Shown here: positions 7,696 through 64,000 of the stretch, in pieces
How positions within the stretch are numbered: the first letter of the stretch is position 1
Layout of the letters: every line of letters begins with the position of its first letter
IMG/VR virus record: IMGVR_UViG_3300011561_000001
Coordinates: 1-64,000 of that record
DNA: 64,000 nt
DNA from: a virus
Lineage: Duplodnaviria; Caudoviricetes
Strand: one strand, 5' to 3'
The notes under the pieces: model-generated
What the model was told of the DNA's origin: nothing
Database searches by the model: none
What the model saw: the letters and a program-made list of their open reading frames with translations, nothing else
Translations under genes and position numbers: made by a program

Positions 7696-8175
7696 TTATG
7701 CATTCAACTCTAAACCGGCTTTAATCATGCTAATGACATCGCTCACAGCTTGCCGTTGCGCATCCTTAAAACCAGAGGCATTAAATTTAATGCTCTCCTG
7801 CTGTTCACCATATTGCCCGGCGTTTACTTCCAAACGCCAAACGTCGCTGCCTTTGTATTTCCACAGCTTCACGTGGTTGTTGTATGGGCTTGTGTCTTCA
7901 TGTAGATGCTTGATCATGTAGACAATTTGATCCTTTGTATGCCTTGTTTCTTCTACTTTGTACCACTCTGCTGCCAAAAGAAACTGAATAGTGTTCACAG
8001 CATCATAAATCTTATAAGAATAATCTGCATCGTTTGTCGATGTTGCACGTTCCACAGCTTCTTCTACTTCCTCGTCTAGCTTGTCGAGGATTGCCAAGGC
8101 TAGGACGTTATCGTCGCAAGTTGCTTTGTGTGCCAGTTGATCGAGGCTGAGAAGGTGCAACATATTGTTGATCAT
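7696..8175 (-). CDS. Hypothetical protein, 159 aa
   Basis: ORF track; promoter TTGACA-16-TAAAAT ~8205-8232. Confidence 0.75.
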   Translation of the reverse strand: MINNMLHLLSLDQLAHKATCDDNVLALAILDKLDEEVEEAVERATSTNDADYSYKIYDAVNTIQFLLAAEWYKVEETRHTKDQIVYMIKHLHEDTSPYNNHVKLWKYKGSDVWRLEVNAGQYGEQQESIKFNASGFKDAQRQAVSDVISMIKAGLELNA

Positions 8176-8239
8176 GACAATGGTTCCTGCTGTTGGTTGG
8201 TAGCGCCCATTTTACAGGGCGCTGATAGGATGTCAATAC

Positions 8240-8536
8240 TTATTTATACTGCTTGGCTAAAAATTCGGTTTGGTCATATCCGAAAAGATTATATTCTTTT
8301 GTGCAGTAATTGTAACCGTTATTGTACATTGGGTTGTTTGGGTCGCCTTCTGAGAAAATGCCGTTTTCGTTGTCACGCTCTATTTCTTTTATGGACTCAA
8401 CAAATGCCTGTTTGTAATGTTGGGTTTTCTCGAAAGCCTCGAATACCGCCTCTGGCACTGTGCGCTTTTCCATCTGTCCTACCTTCTGGATGTTGGTTTG
8501 TGTTTGCATTGTTACCCATCCTTGGGCTTGCGTCAA
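8240..8536 (-). CDS. Hypothetical protein (start uncertain, possibly 8473)
   Basis: ORF track. Confidence 0.6.
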   Translation of the reverse strand: MTQAQGWVTMQTQTNIQKVGQMEKRTVPEAVFEAFEKTQHYKQAFVESIKEIERDNENGIFSEGDPNNPMYNNGYNYCTKEYNLFGYDQTEFLAKQYK

Positions 8537-8538
8537 GC

Positions 8539-8718
8539 ATTATTCCGCGAGTTTTCGGATTCTTTTCGTCTGTCCGTTGTGCATCCGAATGAAATACTCC
8601 GAACCGTTCCACTCCACGAAAAATCCGGTATGATGCCCATCCGGCCTCTCTTCATCAAAACGCTCCAGAATCTTACCTTCACGCCTGATTTGTTTGCTTT
8701 GCTCTTCGATGGTTCGCA
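8539..8718 (-). CDS. Hypothetical protein, 59 aa (MRTIEEQSKQ...)
   Basis: Translated by hand. Confidence 0.55.
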
Positions 8719-8949
8719 TAACGTGATCCCTTGTTTCCGGTGACTTGTAATGTTGCTCTAATCTGGGGTAGATATTGCCTGATTTCTTCCTACCTTGTCA
8801 ACCCCAATGATAGGAAATTTTGCGATTTCTTGTGCTAACAGCAGCCTTTACATAAGCTGCCATCCCATACGGAAAGCTTGTCCGTGTTTCCCTTGTAGCA
8901 GCTTTGTTCACAGAAAGCATAAGACGTTGACGGAAAGACAACGGCTTTT

Positions 8950-9168
8950 TCATTTAATGATTCTACACAAGAAAAATTTACCGGCATTGTCTGGATGATC
9001 TTCCCCTTCACTATCACGAAGAACAACTATCGTTTTTGCCACTCCCAACCCCATAATATATAAAGATTCGTTTAGGGCTGACACGTACGTGTCAAACAGG
9101 TCGGATTCGCAAACCTTCCCAGTGTACTTTTGTTTGTACTGAACCATGTAACGTGCCATTTTAATCAC
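8950..9168 (-). CDS. Hypothetical protein, ~70 aa
   Basis: ORF track; promoter TTGACG-17-CAGAAT upstream (~9196-9224). Confidence 0.6.
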   Translation of the reverse strand: MIKMARYMVQYKQKYTGKVCESDLFDTYVSALNESLYIMGLGVAKTIVVLRDSEGEDHPDNAGKFFLCRIIK

Positions 9169-9257
9169 CTCGCTTGTTTTCGTTTCTGTTGGAACTATTC
9201 TGCCCCAATGTGCCTATGTCGTCAACAGCTTTCTACAAGAAAATTACACAAAAGATT

Positions 9258-9488
9258 CTATTGGTCTTGGCTCTTCAATAGCTTAAGCTTATCAGCAGCC
9301 TCTGTATGTGACACTAAGCGCTCCATAGCTTCTAGCTGGCGTTGCTGTTGTGCATATTCAAGCTTTCTGTTACTATGAGCGTTAGCCAATAGACGCCAAA
9401 TATAGATGATGATCAACAATCCACCCGTTAGGAAAATCATTAGAATATGTAGGATGTGCCATGTAGACTTCATTTTGTTTGTCCTCAC
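9258..9488 (-). CDS. Small membrane protein, 76 aa
   Basis: HILHILMIFLTGGLLIIIYIW TM segment followed by a coiled coil. Confidence 0.7.
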   Translation of the reverse strand: MRTNKMKSTWHILHILMIFLTGGLLIIIYIWRLLANAHSNRKLEYAQQQRQLEAMERLVSHTEAADKLKLLKSQDQ

Positions 9489-9739
9489 GAATTAGCGTCA
9501 ATACCCAGCTCTTCTAGATAGGCAGTCACTCGTTCTTTTTGGGCAATGAGTGCTTCCATTATAACAGACCGATCAAACTGCACTTTTCGTGCATAGGTGC
9601 TGACGTATTCAAATGTGCAATAAGCTGGACCGGGTTTATCCTCCTTGTAAAAATCAATCAGCGTGTTGAGTTCGTCAAGTGCATCAATTGTCAGTTTCAG
9701 GTTTACAAGTGCTGTGCGGTTTTCTGAAAGCTTAATCAT
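9485..9739 (-). CDS. Hypothetical protein, 84 aa
   Basis: ORF track; coupled with the next gene. Confidence 0.7.
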   Translation of the reverse strand: MIKLSENRTALVNLKLTIDALDELNTLIDFYKEDKPGPAYCTFEYVSTYARKVQFDRSVIMEALIAQKERVTAYLEELGIDANS

Positions 9740-9752
9740 TACTTCACCCCCC

Positions 9753-10481
9753 TCAAAACAAAATTACAAACGTTATAAAGCTTAGGACAACGCCCCCAAT
9801 ATAAGGACTAAGCTTTTCTTTGTCAACAGACAATTTCTTATTTAGTGCTGATTTTACTATGTCTTTTAGCTTCTTGTGTGTAAGGATGAAGACGTTTCCA
9901 CCTTCCCACCAATCGCGTTTTTGTGTGCTGTTTTTCCCTACTATCTCTGGTCTATCTTGCCATTCTGGCAGCATTTCATCATCTGTTGATTCATCAGGAT
10001 CAACCCCAAGAGCCTTACAACGAGATTTCCATGCTCTGTGTCTCTTTTGTTCCAAAGCGAAGATCAGTTGTTTAAATTCTTCCTCGCTTATCTCTTCATT
10101 CTCAAAAGTTTTGTAAAGCTCAGCCTCTTGCTTGTCCAAACGATCAAGCGTGCGTTCCTGCGGGACAATTTGATGTGCGATAGGGGTTGTTTTCTTAGAT
10201 GGGCTTTTCTTTTGGTTAAGACCTAAAGCTTCATCACTAAAAGCTTTAATGTTTGGCTTTCCGTCTTTTGTCCAGACGTCAGGCTTGATAATCTCATCAG
10301 CCGACTGAGCTTTACGGAGTTCCCAGTACGCACTCCCTGCAAGGTTTCTCACTTCTCTTGTCAATGGGTTACGCCACTGTCTTCCGTTTCTCGACAAACC
10401 TTCCCAGTCTTCTTGTGTCCCATCTTCACACGTAGCACCAACGCCAGACCTGAATCCGTAACCCCTTGGAATGCTGATCAT
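9753..10481 (-). CDS. Hypothetical protein, 242 aa, with C-terminal TM anchor
   Basis: ORF track; ends YIGGVVLSFITFVILF; promoter TTGACT-17-TATTCT ~10520-10549. Confidence 0.75.
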   Translation of the reverse strand: MISIPRGYGFRSGVGATCEDGTQEDWEGLSRNGRQWRNPLTREVRNLAGSAYWELRKAQSADEIIKPDVWTKDGKPNIKAFSDEALGLNQKKSPSKKTTPIAHQIVPQERTLDRLDKQEAELYKTFENEEISEEEFKQLIFALEQKRHRAWKSRCKALGVDPDESTDDEMLPEWQDRPEIVGKNSTQKRDWWEGGNVFILTHKKLKDIVKSALNKKLSVDKEKLSPYIGGVVLSFITFVILF

Positions 10482-10588
10482 TTTATTTTCCTCTTACAGC
10501 TAAATTGCTTTGTTGTGCCTAGAATAAAAGAAAAGCTCCGAGGAGTCAACCAAGGAGCTTATGAAAATAATCTATTGATTATGCCTCT

Positions 10589-10846
10589 TTAATTACTTCC
10601 CCACCAGCCAAGCTCAATAGCACTCTCAAGAGCTTTGATTAGGTTTTGCGCATCCTCTTTAGAATCCAAGATAACGTTTGTGCATTCCCCATCGCGCTGA
10701 CGAGCCTCACCAGATGAATTCAGATAAACACAATCGTTTTCAGGAATAAGCTGAAGCTCCACCACCGATTCGTAATCGTCGCCATCTGCAAACTTGATAA
10801 TAGTTACAACTTCTTCTTTGCTTGTACGAATGTCAATAGAACGCAT
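10589..10846 (-). CDS. Hypothetical protein, 85 aa
   Basis: ORF track; AAGGAG SD upstream. Confidence 0.75.
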   Translation of the reverse strand: MRSIDIRTSKEEVVTIIKFADGDDYESVVELQLIPENDCVYLNSSGEARQRDGECTNVILDSKEDAQNLIKALESAIELGWWGSN

Positions 10847-17260: not shown

Positions 17261-19006
17261 GTGAGTCACTACGTTGTAGGAAAGAATCCTTGCAAGCGTT
17301 GCAGGGCTAGAGGCAATGACCATAACGGAGACAATTTCCACTTCTATGGGGAAGGTCTTGGTGGTCATTGCTTTGTTTGTAATTACACACTGCCCTCTGA
17401 TGATTGGTTGGCAGAACATGGTGAAGTGAAAGAAGAGGAGTATGATCTGGTGGGAACAGAGTTTAATGAAGAGATTCAAAATAAGCTGAAAGACCGTACC
17501 GGCGTCGATAGTAAAAATTTCCGGGGAATTAGGGCAGATGTTTCCAAATTCTTTGGCGTGAGGTACGAGTATAACGAAGAAAACGGCGAAGTTGTGGCCG
17601 TGTACTACCCGTGTACAACAAACTATAAACTCAGCGGGTGGAAAAAACGTTCGGTGCCTAAAAGCTTCTCTGCTATTGGTGTGGTAGGGAGAGAGGCGGA
17701 CTTGTTTGGGCAATTTCGTTTCCAGAATGCGACAGGAAAATACTGTCTGTTGACAGCAGGAGAAGCCGATCAGTTGGCGGCATACTCCATGCTTAAAGAT
17801 TATTATGACGGGAAGGGTGAAGACTGTATTCCTGTAGTAAGTGGCACAACAGGCGAGAAGGCAAGCTATAAACAAATTCAGAAACATTACGAGTGGTTTA
17901 ATCGTATGGAACGAATCCACATCTGTTATGACATGGATGAGGCCGGGCGTGAGGCTGTAGAAGCGGTAGCTAAGGTTTTGCCTAAAGGTAAGGTTTTTGT
18001 AATGCAGTTGCCGCTTAAAGATGCAAACGATATGCTCTTGGCAGGCAAGCAGAAAGAATTTGTCCGAGCCTTTTTTAATGCAAAGCCTTATGTGCCGAGC
18101 GGGATTGTTGGTTCTAGCAGTCTTGGGGATAAGATTCGTGAAGCTGAGAAGATTTCTAAAGTGCCGCTTCCACCGTTTATGCGCAAGGTACAGGACTTGA
18201 TGGCTGGGGGCATCCCACTAAAACGCATTGTGAATCTTGGGTCAGCCTCGGGGACAGGCAAGAGTACGATTATCGACGAGATGGTTTATTTTTGGGTATT
18301 GAACAGCCCTCACAAGCCGGGCGTAGTGACTCTGGAGTCAGATTGTTCTGAGTACGGAAAGAAGCTGATTTCCAGACACATGGGACGTAAGATCGACCTC
18401 ATCGATGATTATGAGTATAAGCAGGAGTTTCTGAATTCAGAAGCTTTTAAGATTGCAGAAAAAGAACTATTTGAAACCCCAGAGGGCCAAGATCGGTTCC
18501 ATCTTGTCGAGGAACGCGACGGAAGCGTGGAGGATATCAAAGATTTGATCATGCAACTTATTATCCAGTGTGAATGCAAGATCATCATCCTCGACCCCCT
18601 TCAAGACATCCTTGATGGGATGACTATTGACGAACAGGCTGTATTTATGAAGTGGTTAAAAGGTGCAACTAAGAGTCATGAGGTTACTTTCGTTCTAGTA
18701 AATCATGTACGCAAGAGCAGCGGCGGACAAAAAGCTAACAGCACTGGCGCCGATTTGCATGAAGAGGATTTTCAAGGCAGCTCTGCGATTTTTAAGAGTG
18801 CAGCCTGTAACTTGCTATTTACTCGGAATAAGGAAGCTGAGTCTGAATTGGAGCGTAACACTACAGTTATGAAGATGACAAAGTGTCGCTGGACAGGGCG
18901 CACATCACCCGCCGCAGGCCGCTTCTATTACGATAACGAGACACACACATTGCACGATTTGGAGGATTATTTATCAAATAATCCACAACAGTGTGTAGAT
19001 TTTTAA
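17261..19006 (+). CDS. DNA primase-helicase (T7 gp4-like)
   Basis: N-terminal Zn motif CKRC...CFVC; TOPRIM GEAD and DMDEAG; Walker A GSASGTGKST; ILDPL; DFQGSSAI. Confidence 0.95.
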   Translation: MSHYVVGKNPCKRCRARGNDHNGDNFHFYGEGLGGHCFVCNYTLPSDDWLAEHGEVKEEEYDLVGTEFNEEIQNKLKDRTGVDSKNFRGIRADVSKFFGVRYEYNEENGEVVAVYYPCTTNYKLSGWKKRSVPKSFSAIGVVGREADLFGQFRFQNATGKYCLLTAGEADQLAAYSMLKDYYDGKGEDCIPVVSGTTGEKASYKQIQKHYEWFNRMERIHICYDMDEAGREAVEAVAKVLPKGKVFVMQLPLKDANDMLLAGKQKEFVRAFFNAKPYVPSGIVGSSSLGDKIREAEKISKVPLPPFMRKVQDLMAGGIPLKRIVNLGSASGTGKSTIIDEMVYFWVLNSPHKPGVVTLESDCSEYGKKLISRHMGRKIDLIDDYEYKQEFLNSEAFKIAEKELFETPEGQDRFHLVEERDGSVEDIKDLIMQLIIQCECKIIILDPLQDILDGMTIDEQAVFMKWLKGATKSHEVTFVLVNHVRKSSGGQKANSTGADLHEEDFQGSSAIFKSAACNLLFTRNKEAESELERNTTVMKMTKCRWTGRTSPAAGRFYYDNETHTLHDLEDYLSNNPQQCVDF

Positions 19007-19017
19007 ATGGGGGAATT

Positions 19018-19872
19018 ATGAGCAATCCAGCAGATTGTTTTGAGTATGACGAAAATAGTCCATCTTGCTTGAGGTGGAAAATTAAGCGGAAGGGTACTAG
19101 GGGTATTGGTTCCGTTGCAGGAACTAAAACGAAACGCGGCCATTGGGCAGTAAGTTTTAGGGGGCAGCCCGAAATGGCTGCTCGTGTTGTGTGGGAAATG
19201 TTCCACGGAGAGATTCCCAATGGTGTGGTATTTCATGTAGATGGGGATTTATCTAACACGAAAATCGAAAACTTGTGTCTAGACTCCATTGAACCTAAAA
19301 TACAAATTTCGGAAAAGATTGCTAACAGGGAGTGGCAAAATTTATTTGAATATAAAGATGGAGAACTTATCTGGAAGGTTGATGTGTGGTCCGGTAGTTA
19401 CTACAACAAATTGGCCGCCAAGGCAGGACAAGCTCTTACAAAGCAAGTTTGTAAGGAATACCATAAGGTAATGTTAGGCGGGAGGCAGGAGTCTCATCAT
19501 AAAATTGTTTGGGAGTATTTTAACGGACCTGTGCAAGAGGGTTTGCAAATAGATCATATTGATCGCAATCCTCGGAACAACCGGATTGAAAATCTTCGTT
19601 TGGTAGAATTACCCCTTAATGCTCGCAACAAGGGTAAATCTAAGAGGAACACATCTGGTACAACTGGCGTTAGGTACAGGGTACATGATAATGGTCGAGC
19701 TTGTTACATAGCTTTTTGGAACACACTCGAAGGTAAGCTTAGGGATAGGTCATTTTCTGTTTCAAAATACGGAGAAGAGTTGGCAGAATTTCTCGCCCAA
19801 GAGTATAGGCAACAGCAAATTGATCTACTCAATTTGCAAGGGGCGGGTTATACTGAAACGCACGGAACATAG
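19018..19872 (+). CDS. HNH endonuclease with tandem HNH-like modules and an AP2-like C-terminus
   Basis: IDHIDRNPRNNRIENLR preceded by a degenerate VFHVDGDLSNTKIENL copy; C-terminal NTSGTTGV...FSVSKYG. Confidence 0.85.
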   Translation: MSNPADCFEYDENSPSCLRWKIKRKGTRGIGSVAGTKTKRGHWAVSFRGQPEMAARVVWEMFHGEIPNGVVFHVDGDLSNTKIENLCLDSIEPKIQISEKIANREWQNLFEYKDGELIWKVDVWSGSYYNKLAAKAGQALTKQVCKEYHKVMLGGRQESHHKIVWEYFNGPVQEGLQIDHIDRNPRNNRIENLRLVELPLNARNKGKSKRNTSGTTGVRYRVHDNGRACYIAFWNTLEGKLRDRSFSVSKYGEELAEFLAQEYRQQQIDLLNLQGAGYTETHGT

Positions 19873-49093: not shown

Positions 49094-49917
49094 TTAACCC
49101 CCGTAGGTTCAAATCTGTTCTTTAAGATGCTCCGACGAGCTGGAGCGTTTGGGTCACTCTTATCCTCATCAGATTCAGGCACAGGCTTTTCTGTAGAGTC
49201 AGCCTTTCCTTTGTTCGAAGTGGCAGCGGCTTGTTTCTGAATGTCTTCAGAAACATCCTCTGGAAGCTCCTCTTTGCGAATCTCAACAAAGCGAGCTTGT
49301 TCAAGAGTCATATCAAAATGACAACCGTTTCCGGTATCAGGGGTTTCGTTTACTCTAAAATCTGTTACGACAAGATTAGTATAAGGTGCTTTACTATATT
49401 GGTTGCCATCCATCTCATACAAAGATACAGGGACAATACTATTTCTGTATGTCTGTGATACAGGATTGTAAATGACATCCAGAATCATTTTCTCGATAAA
49501 TTCTGAGAAAGATGGACCTGCTTCTGCAACAAGAGATTCATCACCAAACACTTCTGGTTCGACTGGCGAAAGAAACTGACCAATCACGTCCGGCAGGAAC
49601 TTATTCAACAGAGTCTTACCATCATCCACCGTAACAGCAACTGGCGGCTCACCCATTTGAATATTGTTTGCACCAACAGCAGCAAAACTTGTGGTATATG
49701 CTGCGAAGGTAATATCCGCAGAGGTAATAACTCCACGGATATTGAACGTCATATTTTCTGAAATGAAGTGGTCTGATATGCTTACACCAGAGTCCAAAGG
49801 ATGCTTGGATAGCTTACCGTTCACCGTCTTTGTATAGGACTCTACAGCGTTAATGTAGTAGACAGCACTAATATCTTCAGGACCACCGTTGTTTCCAAAT
49901 TGTAAAACTAACGACAT
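49090..49917 (-). CDS. Tail tube initiator/distal tail protein
   Basis: SKHPLDSG..ISDH, NLVVT, FDMTLEQ; directly after the TMP gene. Confidence 0.75.
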   Translation of the reverse strand: MSLVLQFGNNGGPEDISAVYYINAVESYTKTVNGKLSKHPLDSGVSISDHFISENMTFNIRGVITSADITFAAYTTSFAAVGANNIQMGEPPVAVTVDDGKTLLNKFLPDVIGQFLSPVEPEVFGDESLVAEAGPSFSEFIEKMILDVIYNPVSQTYRNSIVPVSLYEMDGNQYSKAPYTNLVVTDFRVNETPDTGNGCHFDMTLEQARFVEIRKEELPEDVSEDIQKQAAATSNKGKADSTEKPVPESDEDKSDPNAPARRSILKNRFEPTGVK

Positions 49918-51174
49918 TATTTACTCCCGTAAGATATATCAACTTCACCAAGCTGGTTAGTCCACCAACCTTCGATCTGAGGAAGAATCTCCTGATTGAA
50001 GATGTTCTCCATGTTTGCAGGATCAATCACACCATCAATCTTGATTTCAAAGGTGTTGGTGATAGTGTTCGATGTGCTGTTAGTCATACCCATTTGAGAC
50101 ATAGCTTGTTCTGGAGTAATGATTCCAGCCTTGATATCTTCTTCCAGAGCAGCACGCTTATCGGCTTGGAAGGCAAGATAATCATCAATCCCATTCCACT
50201 GACCAGCAGCTTTGCTTTGCATAAAAGCAGCTTTCTTTTCTGGTGTGCTCTGGGCTTCCCTATAAGCAGCCATGCGCTCATAGAACCCTGCATACTCGGC
50301 TAACCATTCTGCACCAAAAACAGCGGCAGCGCCGGGGGCGATGCTTCCTAAGAAGGCTAAGCCACCCTTCCAGCCACCACCCTTTGATCCAGATTTACCA
50401 TCAGAGCCTCCCGGAATTGTGTCTTTAAGAACACTACCCAACATAGAGCCTTTTGCTACAGCAGAAGCAATCTTTAGAGCCGCTGCCACAGCGAGAAACG
50501 CCATTGCAACACCCATAATACCCTTATCAAATTCTACGAATTTTTCTAGGAAGGTGAAGAAGTCTTTCGTATAACTGTCATAGCCAAGAACACCAGCAGA
50601 GATATCTTCGAGCACAAGGAAGACGCCACTAAATACAGCAGCCAATCTGCCCCAAGATGTCATCAACAGAGTTCCAACAGCGGCAAATTTCATTGCGTCT
50701 GGATGCAGAGCATTCATTGTGGTCTGGAGATTTTCAAAATGAGTCCCCAAATCACCAAGTACAAGCAGAGGAGCTTCGAGTTGCTTAGTTAACCAATTAA
50801 AAGCTTCAGACAAACTCTTAACAACCGGAGTTAGCTTTTCAACAGCGGTTGTGACTGTCCTGAAGAAACGGGCAAACCCCTCTTCACCGCCATTCTTAGA
50901 AAAGACATTCACCCAATCTTGGAAAGCATTACCCATTCGTGCTTGTTGGGCCATCGATGTGTTACGTAAAGCTCCGATCTTAGGTGCTGCCCTCTCAGAC
51001 ATAATCTGGGAGACAATTGGGAGAATATCGGCTGCCTTCACCTTACCAGTTGGTACAGCTTCATACAGAGCAGCAAGGGCAGCTTGACCAGTAAGTCCGC
51101 TCCCTGTTTGTCTAGCCAGAGCCTCAGCAAAGATACTCATGGTGCCCGGCATACTTTCAGCCATCTGCCTTCTA
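49917..51174 (-). CDS. Tape measure protein, exon 2
   Basis: Begins T AGA AGG CAG ATG GCT GAA, completing EELRRQMAESMPG. Confidence 0.9.
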
Positions 51175-51536
51175 CATTATCTTCGGAAGAGTTCGCTACT
51201 ACTCTTCCCGTTCTCTTATGAACTGCTGCACATCTCTATGCAGATGAGACTATATCTTAACCTACAACATTACTTGTTTAGGTTTCTCCTATTTCCACCA
51301 CCAATAGCTTGTGGTGTACTCCCTTCCGGGATAGTCGTTGAACTTCTATCTTATCTTAAAAGATATTTAGCTGCCGATTGACTCTATTGTTGACGTTTTT
51401 ACCATACCCATACCATTACGCATGGAGCCTATCATTATATTACTACAATGTGGCGGTAGTCAACACCTATCGAGTGTTTCCGGCAATTAAAGAGATTTAT
51501 TTTTCTACATATTTCTATGCAGCGAGCCTAAATTCA
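51175..51536 (-). mobile_element. Group I self-splicing intron (IA2-like, 362 nt, no ORF) in the tape measure gene
   Basis: P AAUUGCCGGAAA, Q AAUCGGCAGC, R GUUCAACGACUA, S AAGAUAUAGUC; P1 GAGCU/GGCUC with U.G wobble; terminal G; splicing restores the frame. Confidence 0.93.
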
Positions 51537-52696
51537 AGCTCTTCCATCGAGACGGTGCCTTTACCAAGCATCTGACTGAGGGCATTATTTACAAGCTTAC
51601 GGCGAGCAGGGGTTACGCCCATTGCTGTTTGATATTCACTAAATCCTTTGAAAATATCTTGACTACCACCAAGAGAAACACCAGCACCAAGGGCATTAGA
51701 CAGGAACTGGTTATAGTCTGGAGCAGCCTGCATGTAGCTAAAACCGTTAAGGTTAGCAAGATTTCTCAGCCATTGAAAAGCTTGTTCACCTTGTCTCTCA
51801 GTATAACCTTGAGATTGCAGAACAGCTTGTGTGGTCAGACGAGTTGAGATTGCTTCTTGGTTTGCGGTATTTAGTGTACTAAGACCATAAGCACCGCCAA
51901 TAAACGGTAAACTCCCCATTCCGTAGCGTGCTAAAGCTCCTGCTGTACCACCGCCATACATGAAGTTACGTCCAGACTTATCGGCAAGTTGAGGACGCTC
52001 TTGTTGAGAAGATCGCTGTGTTGCCTGCTGAGCCTTCTGTACTTGCTTAACTTGGTTTAGGTAGTTCTGACTGAGAACGGGGTTAATGAATATGTTGGAC
52101 AACCCAATCCGCAGCTGGTCACGCATAGCACTGATAGCAGCACTGGACACTTGGGGGCTTATGGTGAAGCCTCTGCTACCCAAACCCCTCAATGCTGTGG
52201 TGACACTCTGTTGCAGAACAAGAGCATTAACCCTTGCCATAATCGGCACAACAGGCATCTTAGCCAGAGCATTGTTTACTGTGTCTGAAAGCCTTCCAGA
52301 TGTCGATAACAAACTCTTACGTCTGGTTAGTCCGGCAAGTTTAGCATCCACCCATCTGGCGTCAATTGTTACAGGGAGTCTGATTGGGTTAGATTTAGCA
52401 GATGCCAACAATCCTTTGTTGATCGCAGATACTTGTTTCTTTGTAGGGGCTGTTAGCTCTGTCCCTATCTTTAGTGTAGTGCTCTTACTTACACTATTGA
52501 TAGCAGACCTTAGACGGGTGATGGCTGCTTTGGATACATTAAACTCGACACTAAGAACGGGTTTAATGTTCAGTCCTTTAGCGGCCTTAGCCATCCTCCT
52601 TTCAATAGATGCAAAGAAGGCATCTACTTTCTTTAAACTGCCTTGGGGGATATTGACGCCCAAGTCGAGATAAAACGATCCTACTGGTCCGGCCAT
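51537..52696 (-). CDS. Tape measure protein, exon 1 (spliced product 805 aa)
   Basis: Tape-measure domain ...LSQMLGKGTVSMEE-L; position after the tail chaperones. Confidence 0.9.
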
Positions 52697-62809: not shown

Positions 62810-63970
62810 TTATATGTTGGAAAATGGGTTGTTAGATTTGAGGTTTGTTGATAGGAGTCCTGCTGAGAAGTTTGGTATGTTCATCTTAGAGGCAAGGAAC
62901 AAGTAGGATAAGCTACAGCAGTCCACGATATCGTCGTGCCCCTGAGAACCGCTCCGTCTTTTTCCATCAAACCGCTCCAACTCCTGATACATAAAATCGT
63001 TATCATTTTGGATTTTATTCCACAGGTCATTCGCACAACCCTTAACGACTTTAACAATACCGAGTTCAGAAGATGCAGCAAATGGCCTAAAGCAATCCAA
63101 CTTACCCGCTGTTGATCTATTTGTTTTAACTATGAAGCCGGACTCAATGATTGATCTAGCTAGCAACGTAGTTGAAGCCTTAGCTGCTGGGTTAGGGTCA
63201 ATAGGTAGAATAATCTCTACGTGAGGTCCATCGTTTCGAGCATTTTCTAGAATGAATTCAAACCATTCACCAAATGTGAGGTAAGTTCGAACAGCATCCA
63301 GAATTACATATTCACCGCTCTTGAGCTTACCCATCTTTACAGATGCGAAGTAGTCAGGGCTTCTGTTACCATCGTGAGGTTTTGTTCCTGCAAAGTCATA
63401 ACTTCGTACAATCTTTGTAAACTCGGTGTGAGGGGGAACCTCTGTAATCTCGATGATATTTTTACGATTAAAATAAGTGGCTTGTTCTGCACGAGCAAAC
63501 CAGTTTCCGTAGAGTAGGCGCTCTCTGTCTAACTTCGGAAGGGCTTCAAGGTTGCTTTTGTACAGAGGATTGGATTTTTTGAGCGGAGGATTATCATCAA
63601 TAGTACCGAAAAGACCTTGAAAGCTAATTGGCTTAACTTGGTCTTCGTGGTCTTCTGGAAGCTCAGGTCTTCCGTACTTCTCAATCAACTCTTCCCGAGT
63701 ATCTCCCCATACAAGATCACCACCAATACGAAGAAGGTAGCGAATGACACCATTCTTTTCCGGATCGGGACGACCCGCAAGCTCATGGCCCTCCGGGTAA
63801 AGCCACCACATTGCATACTTCAGAACCCAGCTATCAGCATCTGGGTTACAGCTCCACCACATTGAGTGTATATTCTTTGCATCAGAACGAAGACGCGACC
63901 ACAACCACCACAACTGTTCTTCGTTGTCGGCGTGAGTCACTTCGTCATAAAAGATGTTTGAAATCTGAAT
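62810..63970 (-). CDS. terL: Terminase large subunit, 3' portion (N-terminal ATPase half lies outside the window)
   Basis: Walker B NIFYDE, CNP, LLYGNW, nuclease RSYD...PDY and HDDIVD. Confidence 0.9.
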   Translation of the reverse strand: MQISNIFYDEVTHADNEEQLWWLWSRLRSDAKNIHSMWWSCNPDADSWVLKYAMWWLYPEGHELAGRPDPEKNGVIRYLLRIGGDLVWGDTREELIEKYGRPELPEDHEDQVKPISFQGLFGTIDDNPPLKKSNPLYKSNLEALPKLDRERLLYGNWFARAEQATYFNRKNIIEITEVPPHTEFTKIVRSYDFAGTKPHDGNRSPDYFASVKMGKLKSGEYVILDAVRTYLTFGEWFEFILENARNDGPHVEIILPIDPNPAAKASTTLLARSIIESGFIVKTNRSTAGKLDCFRPFAASSELGIVKVVKGCANDLWNKIQNDNDFMYQELERFDGKRRSGSQGHDDIVDCCSLSYLFLASKMNIPNFSAGLLSTNLKSNNPFSNI

Positions 63971-64000
63971 CAATATATTTGTTCAAGAAAGGTCGTTAAT
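63971..64000 (-). mobile_element. Probable 3' end of a second group I intron in terL
   Basis: In-frame TGA at 63983-63985; no SD; ends ...UUAACGACC...UGAACAAAUAUAUUG, paralleling the 3' end of the TMP intron. Confidence 0.5.

Follow-up and report, generated by a model that had tools for sequence, protein, structure and literature searches.

A group I intron without an endonuclease gene in the tape measure gene of an uncultured contractile-tailed phage, at a codon also interrupted in Vibrio phage ICP1

Results

The window, the whole 64,000-nt stretch of DNA analysed here (positions 1 to 64,000 of IMG/VR record IMGVR_UViG_3300011561_000001), belongs to the genome of an uncultured phage of approximately 90 kb that was assembled from a metagenome (CheckV completeness 100%). 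Its genes are those of a contractile-tailed phage. The neighbours of the tape measure protein (TMP) gene encode a portal, an S49 protease, capsid E, DUF3383 and a tail assembly chaperone, and a gene for a Dit-like protein lies downstream of the TMP in the same tail module. The capsid protein is less than 40% identical to that of every isolate, and the phage is therefore taken to represent an uncultured lineage. No megablast match to the whole TMP region was found among isolated phages, and relatives of the region were found only via protein searches. A search of IMG/VR with each of the two TMP exons described below returned seven related contigs.

On the minus strand the TMP gene is divided between two ORFs, 52696-51515 (393 aa) and 51164-49917 (415 aa), which are halves of the same gene. 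Joining position 51537 to 51174 in silico gives 2418 nt, encoding 805 aa plus a stop codon with zero internal stops. Exon 1 (51537-52696, minus strand) supplies 386 codons and the CU of Leu387, its 3′ U pairing with a G of the guide sequence (IGS), and exon 2 (49917-51174, minus strand) supplies the third base of that codon (CU+U), 418 further codons and the stop. The initial annotation had joined the gene at this point to give a leucine codon and an 805-aa TMP; the frame is indeed open, and the junction is identical to that of uninterrupted relatives. The predicted junction peptide is ...SMEEL/RRQMAESMPG (a slash marks the insertion point throughout).

Exon 1 aligns to the N-terminal half of uninterrupted TMPs and exon 2 to the C-terminal half. 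The phrog_5255 profile is matched from 342 to 431 in exon 1 and then from 430 to 782 (of 800) in exon 2. Similarly, Pfam domain TMP_3 is matched in exon 1 over profile positions 14-112 of 192, and in an intron-less relative (L008) it is continuous, spanning the insertion point (14-191, 56.7 bits). More distant isolates, Pseudomonas phages M1, XD2 and 254, also have TMPs encoded by single ORFs (692-787 aa), which align over the junction without gaps, to EELKGQLAE. In unspliced RNA the frame of exon 1 stops at a UAG (51517-51515) within helix P2, seven codons into the intron, and would yield the truncated product of 393 aa that had been predicted for it.

Close relatives have TMPs of 690-730 aa, compared with 805 aa in the window phage, and show no nucleotide match to the first ~230 codons of the window TMP (in exon 1, 51537-52696, minus strand). 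Together, the ~230 unmatched N-terminal residues and the greater length suggest that the N-terminal part of the window TMP is mosaic and that the tail is possibly longer.

The 362 nt between the exons (51175-51536, minus strand, 39% G+C) start with UGAAUUUAGGCUC and end with ...GAUAAUG, the omega G being 51175. Rfam model RF00028 (gathering score 50) matches 51546-51226 on the minus strand along its full length (model positions 1-253 of 253; 85.3 bits, E = 2.6e-20), and this is the sole Rfam match within the 64-kb window. From its core elements, the initial annotation had read this stretch as a group I intron without an ORF that interrupts the TMP gene; the full-length match above the gathering score, together with the four empty-site relatives and the covariation described below, supports that reading.

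All of the elements that had been listed for it (P, Q, R, S, P7, P1, P2, P7.1, P7.2 and a terminal G) are present on the minus strand, as are those given here. P1 (51524-51541) pairs exon GAGCU (51541-51537) and intron UG with the guide UAGGCUC (51530-51524), so that the 5′ splice site is marked by a U51537.G51528 wobble within the duplex of exon GAGCU and IGS GGCUC. At the other splice site, the 5′ UAGA of exon 2 is able to form P10 with UUUA of the guide. P2 (51505-51522) is a hairpin with a GAAA cap (CUGCAUA-GAAA-UAUGUAG). The two strands of P3 are 51495-51490 and 51290-51285, and P4 is formed by element P (AAUUGCCGGAAA, 51488-51477) with element Q (AAUCGGCAGC, 51379-51370). P5, with an extension of ~90 nt (51475-51381), was drawn from the Rfam alignment, the fold and covariation. 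P6 (51347-51365) is the hairpin UAUCUU-UUAAGAU-AAGAUA. Element R (GUUCAACGACUA, J6/7-P7, 51343-51332) and element S (AAGAUAUAGUC, J8/7-P7′, 51258-51248) provide the P7 strands GACUA/UAGUC, and are accompanied by P7.1 (51331-51320), P7.2 (51316-51296), P8 (51282-51261) and P9 with a GAGA loop (51243-51226). The 3′ tail (51175-51225) contains a further hairpin, P9.1 (51208-51185; GGAAGAGU-AGUAGCGA-ACUCUUCC). Folded as a single strand, the intron RNA has a z score of -7.5 against shuffles. Taken together, the match, the fold and the open joined frame are well outside what chance would give. The predicted P7.1 and P7.2 place the intron in subgroup IA; Rfam has a single group I model, and the RF00028 match does not separate IA1 from IA2.

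Four relatives (L006, L007, L008 and L009) lack exactly these 362 nt and so give independent evidence for both boundaries. Their TMP is a single continuous ORF in which ...GT[VI]SMEELRRQMAES[ML]PGTMSIF... corresponds to the predicted spliced sequence, and no group I match was found in them with RF00028. The intron is thus polymorphic for presence and absence at this site, and intron-less alleles of the kind that the initial annotation had suggested looking for do occur. Aligned to the junction CT/T, the window flanks read GAAGAGCT/TAGAAGGCAG and L007 DNA reads GAGGAACT/TAGGAGGCAG. As a T stands at both sides of the junction, two placements of the cut are possible, with the same product; 51536 to 51175 was chosen because group I introns end in G.

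Two other contigs, 3300009194_000050 (L088) and 3300029199_000081 (G006, analysed whole as L093), have this intron inserted at the identical position; its guide and 3′ tail are those of the window copy, and its length is 1096-1105 nt. These introns were found by a P4-P5 pattern search and blastn; an Rfam scan had given a false negative at L010 and L013, where one contig is divided between two loci and the intron has a 748-nt ORF loop. In L088 a 748-nt segment occupies the P6 loop in place of 6 nt in the window, and an HNH_3 domain is encoded by a 268-aa open frame of the P6 insert in both contigs. Aeromonas phage PhAER-4 likewise has an HNH ORF in a P6 loop of ~750 nt. The 3′ tail is nearly identical in all three introns. 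The P6 sequence of the window could have arisen by deletion at a short CTT repeat and a subsequent 5-nt duplication.

Between the window and L088, the intron is 96.0% identical in its 5′ part and 98.3% in its 3′ part, compared with 76.6% in the last 600 nt of exon 1 and 53.5% in the exon beyond. An intron that is 96-98% identical within exons that are 54-77% identical points to lateral transfer of the intron in the recent past, i.e. to homing. The two copies differ at 13 positions, including pairing-preserving changes in P2 (G.U to G-C) and P9 (U.G to C-G); in the P7.1 loop, GGAA is replaced by GAAA. Neither its own nor a serving endonuclease was found for the window intron, whose 362 nt contain no ORF in the ORF list. 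Three HNH_3 ORFs are present in the window phage genome, none of them close to the TMP, and the best match there to the L088 intron endonuclease, at 30% identity, lies beside terL. Since an endonuclease gene is absent from the window copy, it is probably immobile unless the enzyme comes in trans.

HNH_3 is matched twice (62.6 and 47.5 bits) by a 293-aa ORF at 18991-19872 (plus strand) of the window, and another HNH_3 ORF is found at genome position 69626-69760. L088 and G006 also have another group I-like insert, in which a 241-aa HNH_3 ORF lies (L088:2050-3075; L093, minus strand ~870-1870). It follows ...AUGCCGGGU, at a distance of 31 nt on the downstream side of the first TMP intron; the window reads uninterrupted ATGCCGGGCACC there.

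In other genomes of the clade introns are found elsewhere. The complete 87-90-kb relatives G002 and G003 have no TMP intron and strong group I introns at other loci: that of G002 (L019, 78103-78331) is inside the ribonucleotide reductase large subunit gene, and that of G003 (L018, 82098-82361) is in or adjoining terL. Introns are thus patchily distributed across the clade, with TMP, terL and ribonucleotide reductase genes occupied in different genomes. An exact 27-mer spanning P7-P7.1 of the window intron was found in 63 viral contigs; these have just the core in common, and in none does it lie within a related TMP.

In a sensitive blastn search of isolated phages, 634 records shared the core. 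Over full length, the best match was Vibrio phage ICP1 isolate 1992_Ind_M4 (MW794141.1), which covers 79% of the intron at 68.9% identity. The matching element is the empty middle TMP intron of that isolate (L094:3479-3850; Rfam 84.5 bits), which lies between two unnamed ORFs of the split TMP. Introns enter at the same codon in ICP1 M4 (GAAGAACU/), the window (GAAGAGCU/), PhAER-4 (GAAGAGCU/) and Pseudoalteromonas phage H101 (GAAGAGCU/). The upstream protein ends ...QVMAEEL/ in PhAER-4 and ...VEEL/ in H101, and the downstream exon resumes with L-K-G-Q (ICP1) or L-R-R-Q. No significant tblastn match was found between the window TMP and the ICP1 locus, and the case for homology of the site is built instead on the exon motif, P1 and profile coordinates. 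The breakpoint falls at phrog_5255 positions 423/432 in ICP1 and 431/430 in the window, and the flanking ORFs of PhAER-4 and H101 match TMP PHROGs with breakpoints at phrog_5255 ~414-462. In P1, exon GAACU and IGS GGUUC of ICP1 M4 represent a compensatory change relative to GAGCU and GGCUC of the window. H101 (GAGCU with GGUUC) is changed on one side only, and the PhAER-4 guide is GGCUC. As in an ICP1-type TMP intron, the EE/L site and a homologous ribozyme are found together in the window. The window intron belongs to a mobile family that targets one TMP codon in ICP1, PhAER-4, H101 and uncultured relatives.

Both of the last two isolates have additional introns. The TMP region of H101 (L095, KR534323.1 ~8000-10600) contains at least three tandem group I introns that exceed the gathering score (66, 54 and 80 bits), as well as two weaker RF00028 matches and an HNH gene, between two 'hypothetical protein' ORFs. 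In PhAER-4 (L096, PQ495741.1 ~64400-65800) the HNH-bearing intron at EE/L is followed just downstream by a second intron (90.5 bits).

Covariation was examined in a MAFFT alignment, made on sequence only, of five site-orthologues: the window, L088 and PhAER-4 minus their ORF loops, ICP1 M4 and H101. Pairs were counted by script, with a control in which the 3′ partners were slid by 1-3 columns. Of 83 pairs, 41 were changed on both sides yet still pairing, compared with 11-19 when the partners were slid, and in the three divergent homologues 86.5% of cells were canonical compared with 38-44%; because the pairs were defined on the sequence of the window itself, this comparison is biased towards the modelled structure and against the slid controls. 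P3, P4, P6, P7.2 and P8 were the cleanest helices. In P2, comparison of the window with ICP1 M4 or PhAER-4 shows compensation at four of seven pairs, and P3, P4 and P5 covary too. For ICP1, the P5 extension, P9 and P9.1 align poorly, with many non-pair cells.

A second ORF-less group I intron was found at genome position 64023-64235 (minus strand; L005:1501-1713), just beyond the end of the window (RF00028, 71.6 bits). It divides terL within Terminase_6N between profile positions 95 and 96, such that 3-95 are matched in a 124-aa ORF and 96-213 in a 387-aa ORF; terL exon 2 lies at 62810-63973 of the window (minus strand). The terL and TMP introns are similar in their P7-P7.1 segments. A free-standing gene for a 208-aa HNH_3+NUMOD4 protein (L005:2072-2698, corresponding to genome ~64594-65220, minus strand) immediately precedes terL exon 1 on its upstream side. 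Free-standing endonucleases beside terL exon 1 also exist in T3/T7-like phages, a layout that is called collaborative homing.

Discussion

It is very likely, from the data above, that 51175-51536 is a phage IA-type group I intron without a homing endonuclease gene, inserted in the TMP_3 ...EEL... motif of the TMP gene. From the established group I mechanism and the experiments on ICP1, the steps of splicing can be proposed as follows. In the late transcript, exon GAGCU would pair with the guide GGCUC to form P1, and attack by an external guanosine after U51537 would free exon 1. P10 (UAGA with UUUA) would then align exon 2, and the freed exon would attack after G51175, creating the CU+U leucine codon and a single 805-aa TMP. 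The TMP is essential in long-tailed phages. Given this, and a break within a single domain, splicing should be required for infectivity. The inference in the initial annotation that the full-length TMP depends on splicing was sound, as the intron divides TMP_3, the domain that L008 carries unbroken.

The suggestion that an intron in a TMP gene was undescribed proved wrong. TMP introns of types IA1/IA2 (TMP-IVS1, IVS2 and IVS3) were reported at three sites in prophages of the Bacillus cereus group, where some are without a complete endonuclease gene and where they co-occur with terminase introns in a patchy distribution (Tourasse and Kolsto 2008, PMC2504315). These resemble the window intron as group I introns in a TMP, some without a complete endonuclease and with terminase introns alongside. 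However, the prophages are temperate and siphovirus-type, their hosts are Gram-positive and their TMPs exceed 1200 aa, and the likeness is one of description.

The closer parallel is ICP1. Barth et al. [quoted passage not shown] Of these introns, the middle one usually encodes an HNH-3 endonuclease but is empty in isolate M4; moreover, the terL intron of ICP1 also splices, by RNA-seq and RT-PCR (PMC10448857). The M4 and window introns both enter the TMP between the second and third bases of the Leu codon of ...EEL and share the guide design. They are ~69% identical and agree in their helices, the P5 extension, P7.1 and P7.2 among them. Among ICP1-type introns, as in the window family, HNH-3 content varies while the splice junctions are constant. 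Both phages also have a terL intron and a free-standing endonuclease gene by terL exon 1, although the latter is of the T5orf172 type in ICP1 and HNH_3+NUMOD4 in the window phage. Nevertheless, ICP1 is unrelated to the window phage in size (127 kb compared with 90 kb) and lineage, and has three TMP introns where the window has one. The two TMPs share no pairwise BLAST similarity, being linked through profiles alone. Whereas splicing has been demonstrated in ICP1, in the window phage we infer it. TMP introns have thus been known since 2008, and their splicing in ICP1 since 2023; the window adds another, at the ICP1 site.

The introns of T4 td and nrdB and of Twort orf142 are the classic phage IA2 introns, in which the endonuclease ORF, if any, is in a peripheral loop, and they sit in the most conserved portion of the host gene. 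They are of the same ribozyme class as the window intron and have the same core elements (the shared core seen by blastn). The T4 host genes function in nucleotide metabolism and the function of Twort orf142 is unknown, in contrast to the TMP of the window. Late-gene introns also occur in Lactobacillus phage JCL1032.

A dead relic, which no longer splices and leaves the phage with two TMP polypeptides (393 aa, and 415 aa from ATG 51164), or a defective genome variant, would account for two ORFs that can be called unaided, the second opening with an ATG, in a genome that is a metagenome assembly. We regard this as very improbable. Every conserved core segment fits the Rfam consensus (85 bits), and the intron is 96-98% identical to endonuclease-bearing copies with pairing-preserving differences. 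Moreover, in uninterrupted relatives the residue that corresponds to ATG 51164 is a conserved internal Met (...RRQMAES...), the lone purine run upstream of this ATG (GAAGG) is 3 nt away, too close for a usual ribosome-binding site, and the break falls midway through a single Pfam domain. The 415-aa ORF was rejected as a separately translated gene on these grounds.

It is likewise very improbable, and slightly more so than the relic, that the intron splices but also acts as a regulator, whose slow or conditional splicing limits full-length TMP and so times or limits tail assembly, and whose 393-aa product has a role of its own: the early in-frame stop of the unspliced RNA is a general fact, while close relatives are without the intron, in others it is accompanied by an endonuclease gene or by another intron at a distance of 31 nt, and introns are patchily distributed across the clade. 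The proposal of the initial annotation that the rate of splicing gates virion output is speculation. A selfish mobile element, rather than a conserved regulator, is what absence from some relatives and the cargo in others argue for.

The mobile intron may also be seen in a wider frame. Introns that are 96-98% identical occur in TMPs that are ~55-65% identical as proteins, and at least three tandem introns occupy neighbouring sites. A tentative reading, which we consider possible rather than probable, is that one intron lineage has specialised on a stretch of ~40 nt in TMP_3 (...EEL-x-x-Q-x-x-E-x-MPG...) and hops among unrelated phage families of aquatic Gammaproteobacteria, namely ICP1, H101, PhAER-4 and the uncultured clade of the window phage. 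The TMP motif would then be a general homing hot spot, with ORF-less copies kept by endonucleases supplied in trans during co-infection. If this were true, TMP introns would mark exclusion among competing phages and might even bring it about.

In terms of annotation, the window phage has one 805-aa gene in place of two 'TMP' ORFs, and in the GenBank records of H101 and PhAER-4 the split TMP is unannotated, with hypothetical proteins only. The value added here lies in a clean series at one site and in a TMP motif that related introns interrupt in several unrelated phage groups. No new mechanism is involved. Rather, the site at which splicing was proven in ICP1 is found empty, with an intron without an endonuclease gene, with an intron that has one and with two adjacent introns, and this natural series may serve for work on the homing cycle and on competition among phages that introns mediate.
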